Shown here piece by piece: positions 1,104-59,190 of a stretch of DNA of 64,000 nucleotides (its first letter is position 1; every line of letters begins with the position of its first letter). The position numbers and the translations under genes are program-made. The notes under the pieces are model-generated. The model saw only the letters and a list, made by a program, of their open reading frames with translations. It was not told the DNA's origin and ran no database searches. This DNA comes from Vicinamibacterales bacterium (GTDB taxonomy: Bacteria; Acidobacteriota; Vicinamibacteria; Vicinamibacterales; JAMQPK01), in assembly GCA_963744405.1 (NCBI GenBank), contig CAVUTO010000020.1, forward strand, positions 24,666-88,665. The letters run 5' to 3'.

Positions 1104-1934
1104 ATGGTTCAGGGTCGCGCGTCCGGGTGGCGGCTGTTCGCGCGAACAGTTGCCGCCAGGGCGTACCCGCGGCTCGTCATGAACGTGCGCGAGAAATGGT
1201 GGATGGTCTTCGACATCGTGCTGCCGCTCATCGGACTGTGCGCGTACGTGTTCATCTATCGCGCGAACAATGCGCCGGCCGATCTGATTGGGTTCGTGAT
1301 TATCGGCGGCGCGATGAGCGCGTACTGGATGAACGTTTTGTGGTCGATGGGGAACCAGCTCTTCTGGGAGAAGGAGACGGGCAACCTTGCGCTGTACATC
1401 ATGGCCCCGAACTCGATGATGGCGATTCTGCTGGGCATGGCGCTGGGCGGCATGTTCACGACGACCCTGCGCGCGGGCAGCATCCTCGCCCTCGGCAGCC
1501 TTCTGTTCGACGTGCAGTTCGCCGTCGAGAGCGTGCCGTTGCTGACGGCAGTGTTCGTGCTCTCGCTCGTCGCGCTCTATGGCATGGGGATGATGTTCGC
1601 GTCGATGTTCCTGCTTCTGGGCCGCGAGGGGTGGCATCTCGTGAACCTGGCGCAGGAACCGGTATTCCTCCTGTCGGGGACGTTTTTTCCGATCCGCAGC
1701 TTCAATTTCTGGGTTGCGGCGGGGGCGTCAATCATCCCGCTGACACTCGCGCTGGATGCGATTCGTCAGTTGTCGTTCAAGTCCGGCGCGGAGCTCGGCT
1801 TTCTCGACGTGCGAACCGAGGTGGCCGTGCTGGCTGTTCTCTGCCTCGTCTTCCTCACGGTTGCCCGCTGGTTGTTGAGGCACCTGGAGCGGGTTGCAAT
1901 TGCAGAAGGCAGACTAACGGAGGCAAGGGCGTAG
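1104..1934 (+). CDS. ABC-2 type transporter permease
   Basis: In frame with table ORF 984..1934. ATG 1104 gives the lead-in GWRLFARTVAARAYPRLV typical of ABC-2 permeases. Multi-pass hydrophobic. Alternative ATG at 1179. Confidence 0.8.
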   Translation: MVQGRASGWRLFARTVAARAYPRLVMNVREKWWMVFDIVLPLIGLCAYVFIYRANNAPADLIGFVIIGGAMSAYWMNVLWSMGNQLFWEKETGNLALYIMAPNSMMAILLGMALGGMFTTTLRAGSILALGSLLFDVQFAVESVPLLTAVFVLSLVALYGMGMMFASMFLLLGREGWHLVNLAQEPVFLLSGTFFPIRSFNFWVAAGASIIPLTLALDAIRQLSFKSGAELGFLDVRTEVAVLAVLCLVFLTVARWLLRHLERVAIAEGRLTEARA

Positions 1935-1943
1935 CAGCATCAC

Positions 1944-2125
1944 GGCGGTTCTGGGGTTCTGGGTTCTGTGGTTCTGGGTTCTGGTTCGGGGTTCCAGGTT
2001 CGGGGTTCTGGGTTCTAGATGCGGGTTCGATGGTTCTCAGTTCTTGCGTGCGCGGTACACCGAACCTAGAACCGAGAACCCAGAACCAGAACCCCAGAAC
2101 CCAGCACCCAGAACCCAGAACCGCC
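1944..2125. repeat. Long inverted simple repeat (GGTTCTGG arm / CCAGAACC arm)
   Basis: Left arm about 1947-2018 consists of degenerate GGTTCTG(G) units. Right arm about 2062-2122 is its reverse complement. Outer ends pair (GGCGGTTCTGG / CCAGAACCGCC). Sits between two permease genes of one operon. Confidence 0.85.
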
Positions 2126-2141: not shown

Positions 2142-2981
2142 ATGTGGACATCACTACGAACAGCGGCGTGGCTCGGATGGCAGATCGAGTCGAACTGGGC
2201 GTCGCCGGCTTTATTCGCGCTCTACTCGATCATCAAGCCGCTCACATCGGCGGCGATTCTCGTCGTCATGTTCGGCATGGTGACGCAGGGGAACTTCACC
2301 TCGGCGGCGTTCTCGTACATGTACGTCGGCAACGCTTTCTACATGTTCGTCGGGGCCATCATGGCGGGCATGGCGCAGTCCGTGGTTGACGATCGCGAGC
2401 GTTTCAGGACGTTGAAGTCGATGTATGTTGCGCCCGTCAGCATCCCGATGTATCTGATTGGCCGCGGCGTCGCGCGATTCCTCACGACGTCGCTGTCGGT
2501 GGTGATCACGCTCGGGTTCGGCATCGCGTTCCTGCATCTCCAATTGAATCCGGCCGAAGTGCGTTGGGGCCTGTTCATCGTCGCGCTGTGCATCGGTATC
2601 GCGATGCTGGCGATGATGGGGCTGGCCCTCGCAAGCCTCGTGCTCACCATTGCGCACGGATCGTGGCTCGTGGGAGAAGCCGTCGCCGGCGCGCTGTACC
2701 TCTTCTGCGGCGCCGTCTTTCCACTCGATGTGCTGCCGGCCTGGCTGAGGCCGATAGGCTACGCGATGCCGGTGACGTACTGGCTCGAACTCGTGCGACG
2801 CGCGCTCGTCGGCCGCGTCGCGCACCAGTATGCGTCGTTGTCAGGCATTGGCGATGGCGAGCTGCTCGTGCTGGTGGTCGCGATGACCCTGGCGCTCGGA
2901 GCACTCGCAGCAGCGACGTTCCGGCATTGCGATCATGTCGCGCGCGAGCGGGGACTCATTGATCGCACGACGAACTACTGA
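2142..2981 (+). CDS. ABC-2 type transporter permease (second permease)
   Basis: 279-aa multi-pass hydrophobic ORF, third gene of the ABC-2 operon. Confidence 0.85.
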   Translation: MWTSLRTAAWLGWQIESNWASPALFALYSIIKPLTSAAILVVMFGMVTQGNFTSAAFSYMYVGNAFYMFVGAIMAGMAQSVVDDRERFRTLKSMYVAPVSIPMYLIGRGVARFLTTSLSVVITLGFGIAFLHLQLNPAEVRWGLFIVALCIGIAMLAMMGLALASLVLTIAHGSWLVGEAVAGALYLFCGAVFPLDVLPAWLRPIGYAMPVTYWLELVRRALVGRVAHQYASLSGIGDGELLVLVVAMTLALGALAAATFRHCDHVARERGLIDRTTNY

Positions 2982-2987
2982 CGCCGA

Positions 2988-3180
2988 CGGATTAGGGATC
3001 AGGGATTGGGGATTCTGGATTGGCCGTCACGTCGTCCGTAAAACGATCGCCGGATTTCTGCTGATTCTCCGGACCCGAATGGCGGCGCATCGCCTCGGCG
3101 ATCATGCGAATGCTCTCAACGAGCAGCAGAAAGGCTTTCAATCTCCCAATCCCCCAATCTTCCAATCTTCCAATTCCGAT
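2988..3180. repeat. Inverted simple repeat (AGGGATTGGGGATT arm / CCAATCTTCCAAT arm)
   Basis: GGATTAGGGATCAGGGATTGGGGATTCTGGATTGG at about 2990-3025. The imperfect complement CAATCTCCCAATCCCCCAATCTTCCAATCTTCCAATTCC is at about 3139-3178. Confidence 0.75.
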
Positions 3181-3290: not shown

Positions 3291-3950
3291 ATGGCTTTTC
3301 GATTTGCGCTTGCTCTCGTTCTGACGGTCTCGGCATTCTCGCTGGATGCGTCCGCTCAGCGAGGCAGGGGATATGGATACAGCGGCATCACGGTTTACGA
3401 GCATCCAGATTTCCGCGGAGACAGCATTACGTTGCGCAACGAAGTGCCAGACCTGCGGCAGCATGGGTTGAACGATCGGATCAGCAGCCTCGAAGTCGAC
3501 GGCAACCAGGCATGGGAGGTTTGCCGCGACGTCAATTTCGGGGGAGGGTGTCGCGTGTTTCAGGGAACGATCGACGACCTGAGAGCCGAAGGCTGGAACG
3601 ATCGCATCTCCTCGATGCGCGCGGTCGGATTCGTGCGGGGCAACAACGGCCGTGGATGGGGCTGGGGCAATCAACGAGGCAACACCAACTACCGTCAGTC
3701 GCGCCTTGTGCTCTACGATCGTCCGAACTTCCGAGGCGACGCGCGCGACGTCATGAACAACGCGACCAATCTGGGATCCACGGGCGACCGAGCCCGCAGC
3801 GTGCAGGTCCACGGCGGCGCGTGGGAGCTCTGCGAAGGTGCATCCCGCGACTCGCGCTGCGTCACGGTGAGCGAGGACGTTGCGGATCTGCGCAACCTCG
3901 GGCTTCGCAATGGCGTGACGTCGGCGCGTGAGGTCAGAAGGAATTGGTAG
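3291..3950 (+). CDS. Secreted beta/gamma-crystallin-like two-domain protein
   Basis: Start moved to ATG 3291, with GGAGG just upstream. Signal peptide MAFRFALALVLTVSAFSLDASAQ. Two copies of the motif hYEHPDFRGDS / LYDRPNFRGDA, each followed by a DRISS-type strand. Confidence 0.8.
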   Translation: MAFRFALALVLTVSAFSLDASAQRGRGYGYSGITVYEHPDFRGDSITLRNEVPDLRQHGLNDRISSLEVDGNQAWEVCRDVNFGGGCRVFQGTIDDLRAEGWNDRISSMRAVGFVRGNNGRGWGWGNQRGNTNYRQSRLVLYDRPNFRGDARDVMNNATNLGSTGDRARSVQVHGGAWELCEGASRDSRCVTVSEDVADLRNLGLRNGVTSAREVRRNW

Positions 3951-4048
3951 ATTGGGAGATTGGAAGATTGGAAGATTGGAAGATTAAGAAGACACTGAGG
4001 CTTTTCGTAATCTTCCAATCTACCCATCTTCCAATCTACCAATTCTTT
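3941..4048. repeat. Inverted simple repeat (TTGGAAGATTGG type) between convergent genes; likely bidirectional terminator hairpin
   Basis: Left arm is GAATTGGTAGATTGGGAGATTGGAAGATTGGAAGATTGGAAGATTA. Right arm is TAATCTTCCAATCTACCCATCTTCCAATCTACCAATTC. The outer 15 nt are perfectly complementary. No U-tract. Confidence 0.7.
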
Positions 4049-8931: not shown

Positions 8932-9150
8932 CCAGTATTTGCTGTCTCGACACAGAGGCACGGAGCCGCAGAGAAATTCATGTCTCGTTAGTGCATCGAC
9001 CTCGTGGGCCGCGAACGCGGCCCACGCCGCGCGAAGAAGGCGTGACGAATACAAGAGCCACCCGTGCAAACGACTCTTGATATTCGTCACGCCTTCTTCG
9101 CGCGGTGCGCCATGGCGCGAGGTCGATGCTCGCCTCTGTGCCTCTGTGTC
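8932..9150. repeat. Nested palindromic element E1 (four-way-junction-like core 8993-9129)
   Basis: - Conserved 26-mer CCAGTATTTGCTGTCTCGACACAGAG at 8932-8957.
- Stem A 8993-9004 / 9118-9129.
- Side hairpins 9006-9023 and 9107-9118.
- Central stem about 9029-9057 / 9074-9104.
- Outer stem 8949-8965 / 9134-9150. Confidence 0.8.
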
Positions 9151-13498: not shown

Positions 13499-14688
13499 AT
13501 GACGGATATACGCGTGCTTACGGGCGACGGTTCGATCGATCGGCTTGGCGCGCTGGCAAAGGAACTGGGGTTTTCGCGGACGTTGCTCGTCGCCGATGCG
13601 GGGCTTGTCAGGGCCGGGCATCTCGAGCACGCGCACGCGTCGCTCGAGGGGGCCGGCGTGAACGCGCTCGAGTTCAGTGACTTCGGACCGAACCCGGATG
13701 CCGACATGCTCAATGCGGGCCGGCGCTACGCGGCAGGTAAGGGCATCGACTCGATCATTGGCCTGGGGGGCGGCAGCTCGCTCGACTGTGCCAAAGGGAT
13801 CAACTTTCTGCTGACGCAGGGGGGAGTCATTCACGATTTCCAGGGATACGCGAAAGCGACGAAGCCGATGTTGCCGATGATTGGCGTGCCGACGACTGCG
13901 GGTACGGGCAGCGAGGCGCAATCCTACGCCATCATTTCCGATCCCGCCACGCACAGGAAAATGGCGTGCGGCGATCCGAAGGTGGCATTCCGCGCGGTCA
14001 TCCTCGACCCGCGTCTCACGTTGACGCAGCCCGCATCGGTGACGGCTGCCGCCGGCTATGACGCCATCGCGCACGCGGTGGAAAGCTTCGTCTGCACGAA
14101 GCGGAATCCGCGATCGCAGGAGTTGTCGCTCGAAGCGTGGCGGCTGCTCGAGAGGAACTTCGAGCGCGTCGTTGCGGCGCCCGACGATCTCGAGGCTCGG
14201 GCCGCCATGCAATGGGGAGCGTTTTATGCCGGTACGGCGATCGAACTCTCGATGCTCGGCGCGACCCACGCCTGCGCAAATCCGCTAACCGCGCGGTACG
14301 GCACCACACACGGCAACGCCATCGCAATCCTGCTTCCGCACGTCGTCCGGTGGAATGCCGAGGCCGCAGAATCGCTGTACGCCGACCTGCTGCGTGTGTC
14401 GACCGCCCCCAGCGCCCCCAGCGCCCCCAGCGCCCCAGCGCCCCTAGCGCCCCCAGCGCCCCTAGCGCCCCCAACGCCCCTAGCGCCCCCAACGCGTGGG
14501 CGCTTGCCACGCGCCTGTCACAGCTCGCGTCCGCTGCCGGATTGCCGCGGACACTCGCCGACGCGGGCGCCTCTGCAATCGACCTCCCGGCGCTCGCCGG
14601 CGAAGCGGCCGGGCAGTGGACCGGCACGTTCAATCCGCGCCCATTCGACACGAAAGGGGCGCTGGAGATTTATCAATGCGCACTCTAG
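13499..14688 (+). CDS. Iron-containing alcohol dehydrogenase, frameshifted inside a 9-bp tandem repeat (possible pseudogene or indel error)
   Basis: - N-terminal 300 aa (GLGGGSSLDCAKG, Fe-ADH fold) lie in the frame of table ORF 13490.
- The conserved C-terminus (LATRLSQLASAAGLPRTLADAG..NPRPFDTKGALEIYQCAL) is in the frame of ORF 14137..14688.
- The switch is at the C-run 14433-14436. Confidence 0.85.
14404..14492 (+). repeat. Tandem repeat, 10 units of CGCCCC(C/T)A(G/A), encoding (SAP)n
   Basis: Units read directly: three CGCCCCCAG, one 8-nt CGCCCCAG at 14431-14438, then CGCCCCTAG/CGCCCCCAG/CGCCCCCAA alternating to 14492. Confidence 0.95.
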
Positions 14689-24446: not shown

Positions 24447-25529
24447 ATGAGCCTGGAGACCGATAAGGCGCGAGCTGCGCTCGATGCCCACGTTCGAGAA
24501 ATCGTCAATTGGCATTTCGATCCTGCGACGGGATCGCTATTCTGGTTGGAGTACGCCAAAAAACTCGGATGGGATCCGAGAAAGGAAGTCGGCGGATTCA
24601 GCGACCTGTCACGGTTCCCGGCGTTCGAAGACGAGTGGCTGCGCGGCGGTCCCGTGCAGCGCTGGATTCCGAAAGGGTTCGACGGCAAGCCGGTCTACGT
24701 GTTCGAGACCGGCGGCACGACCGGCATCCCCAAGACGCGGGTTGCGTTCGACGATTTCCGCACGGATTACGAGCTCTTCAGCCGAACGCTGCCCGACGAG
24801 TTTTTCCCCAAGGGTTCGAATTGGCTGATGCTGGGGCCTTCGGGCCCTCGCCGGCTCCGGCTCGCCGTCGAGCATCTCGCGCAGTTCCGTGGCGGAATCT
24901 CGTTCTGCGTCGACCTCGATCCACGATGGGTCATCAAGCTGATCAAGAAAGGCTGGATGGACCATCTCGATACGTACAAGGGTCACGTCATCGATCAGGC
25001 CGTGTCGATTCTGCAGGCCGGCCACGACATCCGGTGCATGTTTACAACGCCTAAGCTGCTCGAGTCGCTGGCGCTGCGTCTCGAGTCGATGGGGTCCTCG
25101 ATCCGGAAGGCGGGGATCACGGGCATTTTCTCGGGCGGCACCGAGTTCACGCCGCAGTGGAACCGCTTCGCGCATGAAGAGCTGCTCGACGGCGCGTATA
25201 TGACACCGACCTACGGCAATACGCTGATGGGCCTGGCGGCCAGCGCGCCAACCGGTCCCGAGAACAACTATAAAATTACGTATCACGCGCCGCAGCCGCG
25301 CGCGGTCATCGAAGTCGTCGACTTCGATGACGCATCGAAGCTCGTCGAGTACGGGCAGACGGGCCGTGTGAAATTGACGACGTTGACGAAGGAGTTTTTC
25401 GTGCCGGGATTTCTCGAGCGCGACGAAGGCGAGCGCGAGCCGCCGCACGACAAATATCCCTGGGATGGCGTCAGCGGCGTGCGGCCATTCAGGGGCTTCG
25501 CCGCGACAACGACAGTAGGGGTGTACTGA
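24447..25529 (+). CDS. Adenylate-forming enzyme (PaaK/LuxE-like, ANL superfamily)
   Basis: 360-aa ORF. Has FETGGTTGIPK (P-loop-like AMP motif) and GIFSGGTEFTP, plus PaaK/LuxE-like length and layout. Confidence 0.75.
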   Translation: MSLETDKARAALDAHVREIVNWHFDPATGSLFWLEYAKKLGWDPRKEVGGFSDLSRFPAFEDEWLRGGPVQRWIPKGFDGKPVYVFETGGTTGIPKTRVAFDDFRTDYELFSRTLPDEFFPKGSNWLMLGPSGPRRLRLAVEHLAQFRGGISFCVDLDPRWVIKLIKKGWMDHLDTYKGHVIDQAVSILQAGHDIRCMFTTPKLLESLALRLESMGSSIRKAGITGIFSGGTEFTPQWNRFAHEELLDGAYMTPTYGNTLMGLAASAPTGPENNYKITYHAPQPRAVIEVVDFDDASKLVEYGQTGRVKLTTLTKEFFVPGFLERDEGEREPPHDKYPWDGVSGVRPFRGFAATTTVGVY

Positions 25530-25534
25530 CGCTG

Positions 25535-25693
25535 TGGTTCTGGGTGCTGGGTGCTGGGGTTCTAGGTTCTGGTTCGGGGTTCTGGGTTCTTGGTTCGCCG
25601 ATCGAACCCGCGGACCTGAAACGCGAACCTAGAACCAGAACCCCAGAACCAAGAACCGGAACCTCAGAACCCCAGAACCTAGAACCCGGAACC
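25535..25693. repeat. Long inverted simple repeat (GGTTCTGG / CCAGAACC), second complete copy
   Basis: Left arm 25535-25597, right arm 25625-25693. Occupies the whole spacer between the stop at 25529 and ATG 25696. Confidence 0.85.
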
Positions 25694-25695
25694 GT

Positions 25696-27121
25696 ATGAT
25701 CACTATTCCAATTCTCCGTTGGGGCCAACCCTACTCGAGCATGGACGTCGATGAGCTGAAGCACTTCCTCACCGGCGAGCCGATTGCGCGGGTGGGCCGG
25801 GCGAATGCCGGCCTGATCCAGCGTGATATGCGCAAGGCCTCGAATGCACGCGACGCATTGCGCAAGATTCCAGTCACCGACCTGATCGCCATGATGAAAG
25901 TGGCGGGCGACCGGTATATGAACGCCGAGCTGCCGCTTGGGGACGGTTCGCAGACGCCCGATGATTTCGCCAGGCAGCAGTCGGCGAGCACCGGTCTGCC
26001 CGTGGCGCTGTGCCGCGCGAACATGAAGAAAAATCAGTTCGTCCTCAGCGAGATGGGCAACATCCTCAAGTCGCTGACGCGCGGCCTCGATCTGAACGTC
26101 CTCACGACCGGCTGCGGCGAAGAGAACGGCGTCCCGATCAGCTACCAGGCGCAGAGCCCTGTCCTCGGGCTCGTCCTCCCGTCGAATTCGCCTGGCGTGC
26201 ACACGCTGTGGCTGCCCATCATCCCGATGCAGATCGGGCTCGTGTTGAAACCGGGCCCGCAAGAGCCATGGACGCCCTTTCGCGTTGCCGAAGCCTTTTT
26301 CCAGGCCGGCATTCCGCGCGAAGCGATCTCGATTTATCCGGGCGAAGCCGAAGTCGGCGCAGCCGTGGTGGCTGCGTGCGGCCGGAGTTTGATTTTCGGC
26401 GGGACGGCCACGGTCGAACGTTACAAAGGCAACCCGCACGTGCAGGTGCACGGGCCCGGCTTCTCGAAGATCGTGTTCGGCGATGATTGCGTCGACGACT
26501 GGGAGCGCTACGTCGACATGATGGCCGACAGCGTCTTCCTGAACAGCGGCCGCGGCTGCATCAATTGTTCTGGCATCTGGGTCAGCCGCAACAGCCGCGA
26601 AATCGCCGATGCACTGGCCAAGCGCCTCGCGGCGATTCCGGCGCTGCCGCCGGACGACCCGAACGCCAGCCTTGCCGCGTTTACCGTTCCCGGAATGGCA
26701 GACGCGATCTCGCAGTCGATCGACGTCGACCTGAAGGCGGCCGGCGTCACCGACTACACCGCGAAGTACCGAGACACGCCGCGCGTCGTCAAGAACGGCC
26801 GGCGCAGAGTACCTGCTGCCGACAGTCGTGCACTGCGAATCGCCGGAGGCGGCCATCGCGTCGAAAGAGTACATGTTCCCGTTCGTCACCGTCGTCGAGT
26901 GTCCAGAGGCGAAGCTGCTCGAGGCTATGGGGCCGACGCTTGTCTGCACGGCGATTACGGAGAAACCGGAGCTGCGCCGAGAGTTGCTCGACGCGACGCA
27001 CATCGATCGGCTGAATCTCGGGCCCGTTCCGACCATCCGGCTCAACTGGCTGCAGCCGCACGAGGGCAACATCGTCGATTTTCTGTACCGGCCGCGCGCT
27101 CTACAATCAGCGCCAGTATGA
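25696..27121 (+). CDS. Aldehyde dehydrogenase superfamily / LuxC-like acyl-CoA reductase, frameshifted near 26797-26803
   Basis: VLPSNSPGVHTLWLPIIP and FLNSGRGCINCSGIWV (catalytic Cys context). After ..RVVKNG the homology continues in the frame of ORF 26828..27121 (AEYLLPTVVHCESPEAAIASKEYMFPFVTVVE). Confidence 0.8.
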
Positions 27122-28423
27122 GCGGAGCGAGCCCCTGAAGATCCTTTTCATCACCGCGGGCGCGGCGGGGATGTACTGCGGCAGCTGCCTGCGAGACAAC
27201 GCCCTCGCCGCCGAGCTGAAGTCCCGCGGGCACGATGTCGTCCTCGTTCCCCTCTACACGCCCACGCTGACCGACGAGCCCAATGTCAGCGAACAGCGCG
27301 TCTTTTTCGGTGGCATCAGCGTCTATCTTCAGCAGCACGCCGGGTTCTTCCGGTGGGCGCCCCGCATCTTCGACAAGTTGCTCGACGCGCCCTGGCTCAT
27401 CAAGGCCGCTTCCTCGAGATCGATTCCAACTGATCTGCGGTTGCTCGGCGAAATGACGATCTCGATGCTCAAGGGGGAGGATGGCTTTCAGCGCAAAGAG
27501 TTCGAGAAGATGCTCGAGTGGCTGGTGAGTGAGCCGGCGCCTGACGTCGTGCAGTTGCCGAACACATTGCTGGTGAGCCTCGCGCCGTCGCTGAGACGAG
27601 CTCTGAAGGCGCCGATCCACTGCACGCTGCAGGGCGAAGACCTGTTTCTCAACGCTCTCACGAAGCCACACCGTGCCGAATCGATCGACCTGATTCGGAA
27701 AAATGCGGAGTCGGTCGATCGGTTTACGGCGGTGAGCGAATATTACGCCGACTTCATGGCGAGCTACTTGTCAATTCCGCGCGTGAAAATCGACGTCGTG
27801 CCGCTCGGCATCAATCTCGATGGATTCGATCGAAGGCACGATGCGCCGGCTGAAAGGCCATTCACGGTCGGGTATCTTGCGCGGGTCGCGCCGGAGAAGG
27901 GGTTGCTGGGCCTGTGCGAAGCGTACGTGCAATTCAGGCAGATGCCAGGCGTCGATCGAGCGCGACTCGAAGTGGCCGGGCTATATCGCTGCCGATCAGC
28001 AACCGTATCTCGAAGCGATGCGAGCGGACGCTGACGAGCGCGGGCTTCGGCGCGGAATTTCACTATCGCGGCGCGCTCGACCGCGAGCAGAAGATCGATT
28101 TTCTTCGAAGCCTCGACGTCTTCTCGGTGCCGACGGTGTACGTCGAACCAAAGGGGCTGTTTCTGCTCGAGGCGATGGCGTGCGGAGTGCCGGTGGTGCA
28201 GCCGCGGCACGGCGCTTTTCCCGAAATGCTCGCAAAGACGTCGGGAGGGATCCTCGTCGCGCCGGGCGATGCGAAGAGCCTCGCCGAAGGGCTCCACGAA
28301 TTGTGGAAGAAGTCCGGCGCAACGCGTCGAGCTCGGCCGGAACGGCTTCGAAGGCGTCCGCAAACACTACAGCATCAGCCGGTCGGCCGATCGCATGCTC
28401 GAAGTGTATGCGACAGTAGGGTG
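27118..28423 (+). pseudogene. Glycosyltransferase family 4 (GT-B), at least four frame changes
   Basis: ATG 27118 overlaps the ALDH stop (ATGA). Frame switches are at:
- the C-run 27132-27135
- the G-run 27978-27980 (..LEVAG|YIAADQQPYLEAMRAD)
- about 28030-28055 (..AEFHYRGALDREQKIDFLRSLDVFSVPT..EAMACGVPVV)
- about 28313-28320 (..RVELGRNGFEGVRKHYSISRSADRMLEVYATVG stop 28423). Confidence 0.8.
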
Positions 28424-37195: not shown

Positions 37196-38450
37196 GCGGC
37201 TGTCGGCGCTGATAGATCGCATCTACGGACGGAATCCGTTCTATACGCGAAAGCTCGACGCGGCTGGACTTGATCCGGCCTCGCTGAGGTTTCCGCGTGA
37301 TCTGTCCAAGCTGCCGGTGACGACGAAAAGCGAGCTGGTTGCCGATCAGCAATCCTCGCCGCCGTGGGGCACGAATCTCACAGAGCCGCTCGACCGATAC
37401 ACCCGGTATAACCAGACATCGTCCACGACGGGAAGCCCGCTTCGCTGGCTCGACACGAACGAAAGTTGGCAGTGGATGCTCGAGTGCTGGAAAGCCGTCT
37501 ATGAGGGCGCGAAGGTCGATTCGCGCGATCGCATCTTCTTTCCGTTTTCCTTCGGGCCGTTCCTCGGATTCTGGACGGCGTTCGAAGCGGGCTGCCAAAT
37601 CGGGGCCCTCTGCATTCCTGCCGGCGGCATGTCGAGCCAGGCGCGTCTCGCGATGATCGAGACATTGCGGCCGACGATCGTCTGCTGCACGCCGACATAC
37701 GCCCTTCGATTGCTCGAGGTCTCTGGTGAAGAGCGCGACGGCAAGCCCGATCTCTCCAAGAGCTCTGTGCGCATGCTGATCGTGGCAGGGGAGGCGGGTG
37801 GAAGTATTCCGTCGACGCGCGAACGGATCGAAAAAGGCTGGGGAGCGCGGGTGATCGACCATCACGGGCTCACCGAAGTTGGTCCGATCAGCTTCGAATG
37901 CTGGGAGGCTCCTGGCGCACTTCATCTGAACGAGGCTGAATACATCTGTGAGATTCTCGAGACCGACTCGGATCGACCGGTCGCGGACGGCGAACGGGGC
38001 GAGCTCGTGGTGACGAACCTCGGCCGGGCACCCAGTCCGCTGATTCGCTATCGCACCGGCGACATCGTCGTCCGGCGATCCGGCTCGTGCGCGTGCGGGA
38101 GCGGTTTTGCCCGTCTCGAAGGCGGCATCCTCTCGCGCGCCGACGACATGGTGAACGTGCGCGGCGTCAACGTCTATCCGTCTGCCGTTGAAGCGGTTGT
38201 GCGCCGGTTTCCCGAAGTGGGAGAGGACCGCGCCACTGTGACGGCAAATGGCGCGCTGCGGGAGCTGTCGATCGAGATAGAGATGGGTGGCGCTGATAGC
38301 GGAGCGGACGCCGCCGCGCGCATCGCGGCCGCGCTTCGCGAATCTCTCGGCCTGACGGTGCCTCTGCGTGTCGTCGATGCCGGCTCGCTTCCGCGCTTTG
38401 AAATGAAGGCCCGGCGGTTTGTAATTGCAGACCAGGGTCAGTCACCGTAG
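37170..38450 (+). CDS. Phenylacetate-CoA ligase family protein (PaaK / F390-synthetase-like aryl-acid ligase)
   Basis: 426-aa intact ORF with FYTRKLDAAG, QTSSTTGSPLRW (AMP motif), YRTGD and VNVRGVNVYP. Confidence 0.88.
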   Translation: MAQASRSAERLSALIDRIYGRNPFYTRKLDAAGLDPASLRFPRDLSKLPVTTKSELVADQQSSPPWGTNLTEPLDRYTRYNQTSSTTGSPLRWLDTNESWQWMLECWKAVYEGAKVDSRDRIFFPFSFGPFLGFWTAFEAGCQIGALCIPAGGMSSQARLAMIETLRPTIVCCTPTYALRLLEVSGEERDGKPDLSKSSVRMLIVAGEAGGSIPSTRERIEKGWGARVIDHHGLTEVGPISFECWEAPGALHLNEAEYICEILETDSDRPVADGERGELVVTNLGRAPSPLIRYRTGDIVVRRSGSCACGSGFARLEGGILSRADDMVNVRGVNVYPSAVEAVVRRFPEVGEDRATVTANGALRELSIEIEMGGADSGADAAARIAAALRESLGLTVPLRVVDAGSLPRFEMKARRFVIADQGQSP

Positions 38451-38487
38451 GGCTCAACTTAACGTAGGGCTCAACTTAAGTTGAGCC
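38446..38487 (+). terminator. Perfect 20-nt palindrome GGCTCAACTTAAGTTGAGCC with 16-nt direct repeat
   Basis: Palindrome at 38468-38487. CGTAGGGCTCAACTTA occurs at 38446-38461 (includes the stop codon) and again at 38463-38478. No U-tract. Confidence 0.5.
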
Positions 38488-50963: not shown

Positions 50964-51027
50964 TGGTTCTGGGTGCTGGGTTCTAGGTTCTTGGTTCTGG
51001 ATCTACGTTCTCGGTTCCCGGTTCGGT
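50964..51027. repeat. GGTTCTGG-type simple repeat, single arm
   Basis: GGTTCTGGGTGCTGGGTTCTAGGTTCTTGGTTCTGGATCTACGTTCTCGGTTCCCGGTTCGG. Confidence 0.8.
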
Positions 51028-57800: not shown

Positions 57801-57934
57801 CCGAGGCGTTCAATCTGCTGAACCGCGCGAACTTCGATATCCCCGACAACTTCTACGGATCGCCGACTTTCGGTCAGGTGCTGTCAGCGGGCGCCCCACG
57901 CCACATCCAGTTCGGGGCGAGGTTCCTCTTCTAG
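54890..57934 (+). CDS. TonB-dependent receptor with carboxypeptidase-regulatory-like N-domain (Oar-like)
   Basis: Start at MTHKVMQVFAWTLVLVVGLNAQS. IRGRVLDASGAVVAGAAVTAVNEATNETR (CarboxypepD_reg-like), a long beta-barrel, and C-terminus RHIQFGARFLF. Confidence 0.9.
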   Translation: MTHKVMQVFAWTLVLVVGLNAQSHRGAIRGRVLDASGAVVAGAAVTAVNEATNETRATMSGEAGAFTLAELAPGTWRVEIGAQGHKTHVERVVLAVNQDRRADAQLEVGALTDRVEVSAPNVDLRRDSPAMGTIVENRQILDMPLDGRNFLELTLLAPGTAPAAQGSAGSVRGDFSFSVNGGREDFNSFLLDGADNVDPKLNTTGVRPPVDAIQEFEVLSSTPEAAHGRQSASQVSVVMKSGTNQLQGTAYAFFRNGALDATNYFAPKGEPDPEYQRTQSGFSIGGPIVRDRTFFFADYEGTRADEGITRISTVPTDAARNALPAFLTHPVGRAITDLYPSPNRSTQVGNYVASPAQVDHTDHFDVRSDTAFGGAFDLMGRYSFADRRLFEPFSGPGFSSLPGYGSDVARRGQNAVASATHIFSPNVLNETRVGFNRVSSSVFPQDGSSVNSSVGLPEPWTNPRDAGLSLITVSGYSPLGHEYNNPQSGTTNTIHVADTMTWTRDNHLVKAGFDARMIRQDAFRDVQARGSLTFTGALTGSPLNDLLTGLPTFTTLARVDNPQRLRTESYAWFVQDSYRVRPNVTISAGLRYDLTSPPVDVDDRATLYNTETGTLSPVGTDGLTRAGYETDRNNWAPRIGAAWTVDEAATTVLRGAYGIHYNHSALAPSEGLYFSEPYFSFSAFFPSPFGLVTLSDPFPSNFPIPTPNPAFGFQPDLRTPFLHEFNVTVQRQLGATRVAEVAYVGSRGRSLIAARDINQPAPSTAMPNLRPDPRFADITLMESRARSEFDSLQARFQQRYAFGCTMLVAYTLGKSMDDASGFFTSAGDPNFPQDSNNPGVEWGRSNFDVRHRLSVSFSYDLPLEFTISGIVQMQSGRPFTVALLPEVDNSNTGRSSLGFGANDRPNVSGNATAGNPGPNQWFNTAAFSMPAYGTFGNAGRNILDGPGYQNVNLALLKRVRLGGRTSLQLRAEAFNLLNRANFDIPDNFYGSPTFGQVLSAGAPRHIQFGARFLF

Positions 57935-59190
57935 GGGACTACTCTAGGGACTAGGGATTGGGGATTGGGGATTAGAAGGGCGGCGGCGCTGATGGCGCTG
58001 ACCGTCGCACCAAGAGTGTAGAACATCGCGGCGTAGCTACCTGTCGTCTCCACACACACCGCAAGCAACAGCGGCCCGACCGCGGACGCCAGCACAGTCA
58101 TTGCTTGTGCGACCCCCTGGATACGGCCCAGTTGGCGTCGGCCATACACACGCGGCCAGACGCTGAAGAACAACACCATCACGAGACCGCCGCCGAGCCC
58201 CATCATCACGGCCCAGACCAGCGCCTGTGTCGTTGAGGTGACATGCGGAAGCGCGAGCAAGCCCGCCGCCAGGATCAGGAGCGACATCGCCATCAATCGG
58301 TTCAGCGGGACGGAGCGGGCGAGCCAGCCGCCGATGAAATTTCCGGCGAGGCCGGTTATTGCGGTCACGACCAACGTCTGGTAATAGACGTTCGGTCCGA
58401 GACCGCGCTCGGACAGGATCGATTCGTTGAACAAACCGATGCCCGATGCGACCAGACCGTAAAGGGCTGCGCCGACGGCAAACACCCAGAACGCGGGGGT
58501 GCGCAGGGCGTCGTGGAGTGTATAGCCGTGCGGTTCCAGGTTCTGGGTGCTGGGTTCCGGGTTCTGGTTCGGGGTTCTGGGTTCTGGGTTCGCACCATCT
58601 GCTGCGAGGCCGATCGATTCCGGACTGCGCCGCACGAACAACAGCGCGAACGGCATCAAGCCTGCCAGAATCGCCGCGCCGACGGCAAACCACGCGACGC
58701 GCCAGCCGCGCGACTGTACAAGCGAGCCCACCGCCGGGAACGCGATCATGAAACCGACGCTCAGTACGACGCTGTAGATCGCCATGGCCACGTCGATGCG
58801 TCGAACGAACCACTGTCCGACCATGGTGATGCTCACGACCGACAACGCGCTCTGGCCAAGCGCGCGCGTCAGCGTGACGGCCACAGCGAGCTCCGCGAAT
58901 GTCGTGACGCGGCTCATCAGCACGACCGTCACACCGAGCGCCGCGGCTATAGTGCACAGCACGATCCTGCTTCCAAGTCGATCGATGAAACGGCCGACGC
59001 CGATTGCGCCCGCGGCGCCGATGAGCGTGGCCCAGAGATTGAGCTGCGCGTAATCAACGCGGCCGATGTCGAGGTCGGCGAGAAGAGGCTCGGTGATGAG
59101 CCCCAGCCCCTGTGTGCGCCCTGGCAGTGTGCCGACCATCGCGGCCGATGCCATCAACAGCACAACCCAGCCGTAGTAGACACGCTTCAC
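57931..59190 (-). CDS. MFS transporter (oxalate/formate-antiporter-like layout)
   Basis: 419-aa ORF with 12 hydrophobic segments. GTG start overlaps the mscS-like stop (GTGA). Central loop carries a repeat-derived insert. Confidence 0.88.
   Translation of the reverse strand: MKRVYYGWVVLLMASAAMVGTLPGRTQGLGLITEPLLADLDIGRVDYAQLNLWATLIGAAGAIGVGRFIDRLGSRIVLCTIAAALGVTVVLMSRVTTFAELAVAVTLTRALGQSALSVVSITMVGQWFVRRIDVAMAIYSVVLSVGFMIAFPAVGSLVQSRGWRVAWFAVGAAILAGLMPFALLFVRRSPESIGLAADGANPEPRTPNQNPEPSTQNLEPHGYTLHDALRTPAFWVFAVGAALYGLVASGIGLFNESILSERGLGPNVYYQTLVVTAITGLAGNFIGGWLARSVPLNRLMAMSLLILAAGLLALPHVTSTTQALVWAVMMGLGGGLVMVLFFSVWPRVYGRRQLGRIQGVAQAMTVLASAVGPLLLAVCVETTGSYAAMFYTLGATVSAISAAALLIPNPQSLVPRVVP
57938..57975. 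repeat. Simple repeat (AGGGATTGGGGATT type) overlapping the 3-prime end of the MFS gene
   Basis: CTCTAGGGACTAGGGATTGGGGATTGGGGATTAG encodes the last residues (..IPNPQSLVPRVVP) of the minus-strand MFS ORF. Confidence 0.8.
58532..58592. repeat. GGTTCTGG-type simple repeat inside the MFS coding sequence (in frame)
   Basis: GGTTCCAGGTTCTGGGTGCTGGGTTCCGGGTTCTGGTTCGGGGTTCTGGGTTCTGGGTTCG translates on the minus strand as ANPEPRTPNQNPEPSTQNLEP, in the central loop. Confidence 0.85.

Follow-up and report, generated by a model that had tools for sequence, protein, structure and literature searches.

What are the long hairpins of GGTTCTG and CAGAACC units that fill whole spacers between genes, even inside an operon, and how did they get there? 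The question was raised by two such hairpins in the window, i.e., the whole stretch of 64,000 nucleotides that was analysed (C20:24666–88665 of the Vicinamibacterales genome labelled G000; 5.15 Mb in 31 contigs, 63% G+C). Positions given without a contig are those of the window. An excess of heptamer repeats in bacterial genomes has been noted since 1990/2007, including the STRR sequences of cyanobacteria, and to our knowledge neither an origin nor a function has been established for such repeats.

Hairpins and solitary arms in the window

The original prediction named two complete hairpins and two single arms, one of them in frame within a coding sequence. All four were found to be present, together with hairpins of other unit families:

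1104–1934, plus strand: ABC-2 permease gene, stop codon TAG 9 nt upstream of copy 1
1944–2016: copy 1, 5′ (G-rich) arm, 73 nt, about 10 degenerate GGTTCTG units, opening with the family terminus GGCGGTTCT
2017–2061: copy 1, loop, 45 nt, without homology to the loops of other copies
2062–2125: copy 1, 3′ (C-rich) arm, 64 nt, CAGAACC units, terminal AGAACCGCC
2142–2981, plus strand: second ABC-2 permease gene, ATG 16 nt downstream of copy 1
2989–3174: hairpin of another unit family (GGGATTA/GATTGG type), directly 3′ of the second permease gene
3943–4043: ATTGGAAG / CCAATCTT hairpin between convergent genes, with the architecture and polarity of the GGTTCTG hairpins
25535–25693: copy 2 (5′ arm 25535–25596, loop 25597–25624, 3′ arm 25625–25693)
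50964–51027, plus strand: solitary G-rich arm with the family 5′ terminus (GTGGTTCTGGGTGCTGGG), without partner arm, between two minus-strand genes
58532–58592, plus strand: solitary G-rich arm, in frame within an MFS transporter gene (57931–59190, minus strand)

Both complete copies were predicted to fold into very stable stems. The minimum free energy of copy 1 was −123.4 kcal/mol compared to −78.7 ± 5.0 kcal/mol in dinucleotide shuffles (RNAfold; z −9.0), and that of copy 2 was −111 kcal/mol (z −9.6). The outermost bases of copy 1 are complementary (GGCGGTTCTGG / CCAGAACCGCC), in agreement with the pairing first described. The hairpins were also said to fill spacers within operons, which holds for copy 1: it lies between two ABC-2 permease genes that are preceded by an ABC ATPase gene, and the Shine-Dalgarno-like motif GGGAG of the second permease gene stays outside the hairpin. 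A search for strain variants found no contig encoding the exact downstream permease.

The first base of copy 2 lies 5 nt past the stop codon of an unnamed gene (24447–25529), and the ATG of an aldehyde-dehydrogenase-family gene (25696–27138) follows 2 nt past its end. This ATG (region 25693–25698) was observed to have no Shine-Dalgarno motif, and other genes starting 1–3 nt from a hairpin end were found at C6:229867, C9:28954, and C12:138544. Translation starts that abut hairpins in this way would be buried in the stem unless the stem is cut or melted.

Of the arm inside the MFS transporter gene, 60 nt in frame encode NPEPRTPNQNPEPSTQNLEP in the central loop of the protein. Orthologues in the genus contain related inserts that differ in length; no insert is present in one genus member or in the out-group. 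A further in-gene array at 14404–14495 consists of 9-nt units (CGCCCCCAG; reverse complement CTGGGGGCG), a unit that also makes up the arms of a cassette at G000 C26:38012–38728 encoding a four-helix-bundle protein (see below). This array is probably another solitary arm trapped in coding sequence.

Two identities that had been set aside at the outset were not supported by the architecture of these copies either. The 7–8-nt units stand head to tail in two inverted blocks, whereas CRISPR arrays consist of 24–48-nt direct repeats with unique spacers. Rho-independent terminators did not fit, as the 3′ flank reads GC(T/C/A) and so on without a T-run or U-tract and as copies are situated between the cistrons of an ABC-2 operon; a simple scan of 20 kb for canonical terminators gave 24 sites compared to 13 expected, none of them at the hairpins.

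A genome-wide system of heptamer arrays

The GGTTCTG hairpins are one family within a genome-wide system and not peculiar to the four sites in the window. About 900 arrays of 7–8-nt units were found in the genome, divided into at least 89 unit families and including more than 100 inverted pairs; an inverted partner was present nearby for about one third of the arrays. Tandem Repeats Finder detected 833 period-7 and 565 period-8 clusters (roughly 286 canonical units of 6–8 nt), exceeding every period that is a multiple of three. By length, GGTTCTG is the largest family (55 arrays, 3.6 kb), with 35 hairpins and 37 single arms.

Relative to genes called with our own simple, crude caller (5023 genes, 84% coding), 74–83% of the period-7/8 arrays were intergenic compared to 16–18% of the period-9 and period-12 arrays. 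The 105 pairs for which both arms were called had a median length of 105 nt and a median loop of 22 nt, and filled a median of 69% of the spacer. Within co-directional (tandem) spacers, they were situated a median of 6.5 nt past the upstream stop codon and 29 nt short of the next start. Convergent spacers held 32 of the 105 pairs (about 31%) though they make up 17% of all spacers, and divergent spacers held 13 (about 12%) though they make up 17% of all spacers and 23% of spacer bases. A weak (4–5-fold) enrichment of a GTGACACGCGTGAC-like palindromic word was observed in about 10% of loops, belonging to several unrelated unit families (e.g., G000 C31:257699–257885).

The GGTTCTG arms form a discrete family within this system. 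In 80–86% of arms, the sequence starts with (A/T)GCGGTTCT and ends with AGAACCGC(T); a GGGTGCT variant is found repeatedly near unit 3, followed by a GGGGTTCT-GGTTC(C/T) pattern near units 4–5. These position-specific variants were found in both arms of the hairpins, in the 37 solitary arms and in the genus species G001, and the hairpin loops were mutually unrelated in sequence. The hairpins had been described as simple-sequence; this description does not cover the conserved ends, the position-specific variants and the place of these arms in a cassette family around a four-helix-bundle gene. The GGTTCTG pattern was present in 17 of 18 genus genomes (2–143 matches each) and nearly absent from other families of the order. 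Since a reversed, non-complemented control pattern gave 0 matches in 31 genomes, compared to 115 matches of the GGTTCTG pattern in G000, these tracts are not due to chance.

The order of the arms showed a strict polarity. All GGTTCTG pairs were G-first (35 versus 0 C-first), and across 89 unit families 314 arms followed the polarity of their family and three went against it. In the 5′ arm, G exceeded C in 248 arms, G equalled C in 62 (mostly with A exceeding T), and G was below C in seven. The G-rich arm is the 5′ arm on either strand: since a structure of G-arm, loop and C-arm is its own reverse complement, the order cannot be explained by the direction in which the DNA is transcribed or replicated, and the opposite order would fold equally well. 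For single arms, the G-rich strand was the sense strand of co-directional neighbours in 198 cases versus 85. Inverted pairs of the GGGAATC repeat in Xanthomonas are likewise always convergent (PMC4692102).

In relatives, the orthologous ABC-2 spacer had a length of 5 nt (G006) or 8 nt (G012) or contained repeats: (GGTCGCGTA)n in G001, (GCAGATG)n in G017, and, in both G004 and G009 but at differing copy numbers, (GCAGATTG)n plus (CTGAAGA)n. Where repeats were present, the sense strand was the G-rich strand in every case. This difference in content shows fast turnover and means that a given hairpin is not host-conserved. No target-site duplication, clean empty site or movement between near-identical strains was seen, and no direct repeat beyond the palindrome was visible at the ends of the GGTTCTG hairpins.

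Tests for selection on pairing were negative. In 68 hairpins from co-directional spacers, RNA stability did not differ between the sense and antisense strands (30 versus 37; Wilcoxon p 0.59), and the numbers of G-U pairs (189 versus 180) gave no strand-specific signature of selection at the RNA level. An arm was no more complementary to its own partner than to the arms of other copies (29.4 versus 29.6; permutation p 0.63). Pairing thus follows from the family consensus, and there was no sign of compensatory maintenance of pairing or of local inverted duplication.

Genes enclosed by the arms

At C12:6616–6711 and C12:7202–7269, GGTTCTG arms were found 490 nt apart around a small ORF matching PF05635 (23S_rRNA_IVP). 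This element (C12:6616–7269) thus consists of a GGTTCTG arm, a PF05635 gene and a CAGAACC arm, and its termini are those found in the bare hairpins; the same layout was found in G001. The C12 gene looks N-terminally damaged, the Pfam match covering residues 27–99 of 106. An NCBIfam match supports assignment of the four-helix-bundle proteins as Avd-like (PF05635/TIGR02436). The loops of bare GGTTCTG hairpins were not homologous to the sequence inside the gene-bearing cassette, and two genus members had GGTTCTG arms with no gene copy detected.

All 11 PF05635 loci in the genome adjoin 7–9-nt repeat arrays, and at six to eight of them the gene is enclosed by a matching pair of inverted arms. At least six inverted 9-mers between the flanks were found for 6 of the 11 loci compared to 1.3% of 4956 other genes (binomial p 2e-9). 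The arm units differ by locus and are the same units as those of the largest bare-hairpin families:

C12: GGTTCTG / GAACCCA
C19:88k: GGTAGGT / ACCTACC
C31: GGTGGTT / CAACCAC
C13: AGGGATT / AATCCCT
C26: CTAGGGGCG / AGCGCCCCT
C24: AAACGAA / TTCGTTT
C4: GAGTCGGG / CCGACTCC
C19:201k: AAAGTAG / CTACTTT
C18: AAGGGGT arm on one side only
C20 (G000 C20:111685–112160, 23 kb outside the window): ATTGGGAG arm on a single side

At the last of these loci, a transposase-like ORF was observed on the armless side, which suggests that the 3′ arm was removed by an IS insertion.

Homologues of the GGTTCTG-cassette protein in the genus carried arms that changed with protein identity:

At least 69% identity: arms GGTTCTG / GAACCCA, nine loci (for one of them, L202, only the right-hand arm is listed)
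49–56% identity: arms GGTTCCG-type / CGGAACC, four loci
36–40% identity: GGTTCG-based 8–9-nt units, e.g., GGTTCGAG, four loci

Judged from these sequences, arm unit and protein were shown to diverge together, stepwise within the genus. The association also extends across phyla. PF05635 loci from Acidobacteriota, Planctomycetota, Bacteroidota, Firmicutes, CPR, Proteobacteria, and others were found with a three-sequence alignment as query, and at a threshold of at least eight inverted 8-mers between a locus's own flanks, 42 of 75 loci had matching inverted flanks compared to 3.3% of mismatched flank pairs. Loci with the same unit shared 70% protein identity compared to 47% overall (Spearman p 5e-17; permutation p<0.002), a covariation that is partly confounded by host phylogeny, as host relatedness contributes to it.

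A screen of all genes for inverted 9-mers in their flanks yielded a second family, GxxExxY (TIGR04256/PF13366, PD-(D/E)XK fold). All eight GxxExxY loci lie between three-unit inverted octamer arms (e.g., GACACAGAG...CTCTGTGTC), and some of these cassettes also include a 137-nt four-way-junction palindrome. A whole cassette comprising arms, gene and inner palindrome recurs at three loci (G000 C19:168387–169062, C9:167904–168575, and C19:171433–171944). Across phyla, 51 of 75 GxxExxY loci had matching inverted flanks compared to 15% in controls, a control rate that is high because many phyla share CAC(A/G)GAGR arms. The window contains a gene-less member of this type:

8949–9150: G arm GACACAGAGGCACGGAGCCGCAGAG (GACACAGAG-type), ORF remnant ATGTCTCGTTAG, palindrome, C arm CTCTGTGCCTCTGTGTC (CTCTGTG-type)

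Arms and palindrome are retained and the ORF is reduced to a stub of four codons, ATG-TCT-CGT-TAG. This is a visible deletion derivative, in which a gene-bearing cassette has turned into a bare hairpin; such descent by ORF deletion is directly visible for the GxxExxY type only.

In the three recurring GxxExxY cassettes, homology was observed to extend about 30 nt upstream of the G arm, where it begins at ATCGCGGTGTTCTGA (G000 C19:168360–168386, C9:168576–168605 on the reverse strand, and C19:171405–171432). The crude gene caller reads this region as the last four codons and stop of three different upstream genes, and the gene upstream may obtain a new C-terminal tail, with its stop codon, from the cassette.

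The five Y1-transposase (RAYT-type) genes of the genome lack adjoining heptamer arrays, which bears out the earlier view that the hairpins are not classical REP elements. Beside two of them, longer repeats were observed: AAGTTGAGCCCTACAGAC in 2.5 copies at G000 C31:589026–589070 and a 30-nt hairpin unit in three copies at C6:92995–93086. Two copies of CGTAGGGCTCAACTTAA, the reverse complement of the C31 type, occur in the window at 38446–38479. These longer repeats are a system separate from the heptamer hairpins.

Origin and possible role of the hairpins

The closest parallels were found in the intervening sequences (IVS) of 23S rRNA. PF05635 proteins, the ORFs of these IVS, have a homologue in Avd of diversity-generating retroelements (PMC10053308). 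In IVS such as those of Leptospira and Coxiella burnetii (PMC4990558), a long inverted-repeat stem likewise surrounds a PF05635 (S23p/four-helix-bundle) ORF, which is often decaying. The 5′ stem arm of the C. burnetii IVS consists of tandem GACAGAT heptamers, purine-rich like the 5′ arms described here and strain-variable in number, and cleavage by RNase III takes place at the first repeat (PMC4990558). For the present hairpins, cutting by RNase III is predicted by this analogy. They differ from rRNA IVS in lying between or inside protein-coding genes instead of in helix 25 or 45 of 23S rRNA, in having repeat arms of 50–70 nt compared to a 28-bp IVS stem, and in that most copies, including those in the window, are without an ORF, which for the GGTTCTG type is found only at C12:6616–7269 and in genus homologues. 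Genes annotated as 23S_rRNA_IVP have also been seen wedged within cas operons (PMC3936711).

Published heptamer repeats share several of these features. Those of Xanthomonas and Nostoc have 7-nt units and an intergenic bias, lie near the upstream ORF (28 nt in Xanthomonas), are scarce between divergent genes, and change in length and sequence between close species; Xanthomonas genomes contain 70–75 inverted pairs each, with the same polarity as here (PMC4692102). GGGAATC repeat #15 of Xanthomonas overlaps the start of XCC0516, a PF05635 protein with solved structure, a connection on which the paper does not comment (PMC4692102, supplement). Paired inverted hepta- and octamer arrays of Geobacter metallireducens have been annotated as regulator sites (PMC2700814), TAACTGA heptamers are found in Beggiatoa (PMC4679880), and Mrazek's survey of 2007, as quoted in PMC4692102, reported heptamer over-representation in many bacterial genomes. 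In these published cases one or few units per genome were described and no gene family was tied to them, whereas at least 89 unit families were counted in the genome studied here, and every major family is matched to an enclosed four-helix-bundle or GxxExxY gene.

REP/REPIN-RAYT systems and Ssn GIY-YIG nucleases with NTS repeats (PMC11893778) resemble the present elements: inverted copies of a repeat stand on either side of a small gene, and the same repeat is scattered behind genes in tens to hundreds of gene-less copies. The proteins differ: judged by sequence, those found here are a four-helix bundle without known catalytic activity and a GxxExxY protein of PD-(D/E)XK fold. In addition, the repeats are tandem 7–8-nt arrays, not a single short palindrome. 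Correia elements of Neisseria, which are MITEs, fold within mRNA and are targets of RNase III. Like the hairpins, they are non-autonomous inverted-repeat elements that are co-transcribed with their neighbours and form long hairpins; unlike Correia elements, the hairpins have no transposase-bearing parent and an interior that is not conserved between copies, and no target-site duplication was seen. Of the features of a MITE, conserved terminal inverted repeats are present (GCGGTTCT...AGAACCGC, 80–86% of ends), but target-site duplications were not found and the parent-like element encodes a four-helix-bundle protein instead of a transposase.

The hairpins might alternatively be host elements, such as REP-like stabilisers of 3′ ends, terminators or insulators, with the four-helix-bundle and GxxExxY genes as parasites that home into their loops. 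Hairpins do outnumber genes (more than 100 versus 19), they sit tight behind stop codons and are scarce in divergent (promoter) spacers, their loops lack homology to the cassette interior, and rRNA IVS do occupy helix loops (PMC4990558). We nevertheless regard this explanation as unlikely, given that the arm unit changes in steps along with the protein lineage and, across phyla, varies with protein identity, that whole GxxExxY cassettes recur at three loci, that orthologous spacers carry different repeats or none, and that pairing is not maintained by compensatory change. Neutral microsatellites, formed in place by polymerase slippage and paired by chance or by local inverted duplication, would fit the same-site variation in copy number between G004 and G009 and the lack of selection for pairing, and PMC4692102 quotes a published proposal of a heptamer slippage bias. 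Conserved termini and position-specific variants common to dispersed copies and across species, together with the strong link to two gene families (p 2e-9), largely refute such an origin, which also conflicts with the absolute polarity (35 to 0; 314 to 3) and with own partner arms being no closer than others; its probability is very small.

Little weight can likewise be given to G-quadruplex regulatory repeats, as proposed for GGGAATC in Xanthomonas and GGGGAYT in Nostoc. (GGGTTCT)n conforms to the G3N4 pattern, and downstream of genes it is mostly the G-rich strand that is the sense strand (198 versus 85), but many sister families of the same architecture and polarity (AAAAACG, AAAGTAG, AACGAAG) cannot form a quadruplex, a 60-bp duplex competes with it in paired copies, and no gene-regulatory role was found in Xanthomonas either (PMC4692102). 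Mobilisation as REP/REPIN-type elements by a RAYT (Y1) transposase is the least probable of the alternatives: the elements are dispersed extragenic palindromes behind genes and the genome has five PF01797 genes, yet heptamer arrays flank none of the five, two of which adjoin repeats with longer units (18 and 30 nt), and the arms are 50–70 nt of tandem units, not REPs of 20–40 nt. A telomerase-like addition of repeats to a 3′ end at a break would be consistent with the polarity, with outer ends that are conserved and with loops that are unrelated; it is speculation, and we know of no enzyme for such a step.

The GGTTCTG/CAGAACC hairpins are probably gene-less, IVS-like cassettes that have arisen by loss of the ORF, with a stem that would be cut by RNase III and a protein that would recognise its own arms. 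In a full cassette, a small four-helix-bundle gene (PF05635/TIGR02436, Avd-like) follows a G-rich array of 7-nt units and precedes the inverted C-rich array; each protein lineage has its own arm unit, which the small protein may recognise. Bare hairpins would derive from gene-bearing cassettes through loss of the ORF, and both forms lie right after stop codons, in operons or between convergent genes. Once co-transcribed, the 50–70-bp stem would be a substrate for RNase III, as in 23S rRNA IVS, and an RNase III gene (rnc) is present in the genome. Such a cut would split the operon transcript and leave ends capped by stems. By analogy with 23S rRNA IVS, RNA processing or stability, as suggested in the original prediction, would be the most plausible role.

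No paper was found that connects genome-wide heptamer hairpins to PF05635 or GxxExxY genes, and for the GGTTCTG repeat itself the matches listed contained only unrelated T-cell-receptor papers. New here are the stepwise co-divergence of arm and protein, the polarity statistics and the negative tests for selection at the RNA level. A broader proposal, which we put forward tentatively and hold to be possible but doubtful, is that Avd-like and GxxExxY proteins recognise their own 7–8-nt units and drive the copying of cassettes and of bare hairpins, that the bacterial heptamer excess is largely the footprint of a single superfamily of IVS-like selfish cassettes spread over many phyla, and that the stems act as RNase III sites at which operon transcripts are cut between cistrons.

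The four-helix-bundle and GxxExxY families are very large, and we know of no function for them outside diversity-generating retroelements (Avd). The finding links two puzzles, the intergenic heptamer repeats and the four-helix-bundle and GxxExxY genes, as parts of the same cassettes. It also matters for annotation, as hundreds of spacers, some start-codon contexts and some in-frame protein inserts are shaped by these elements.
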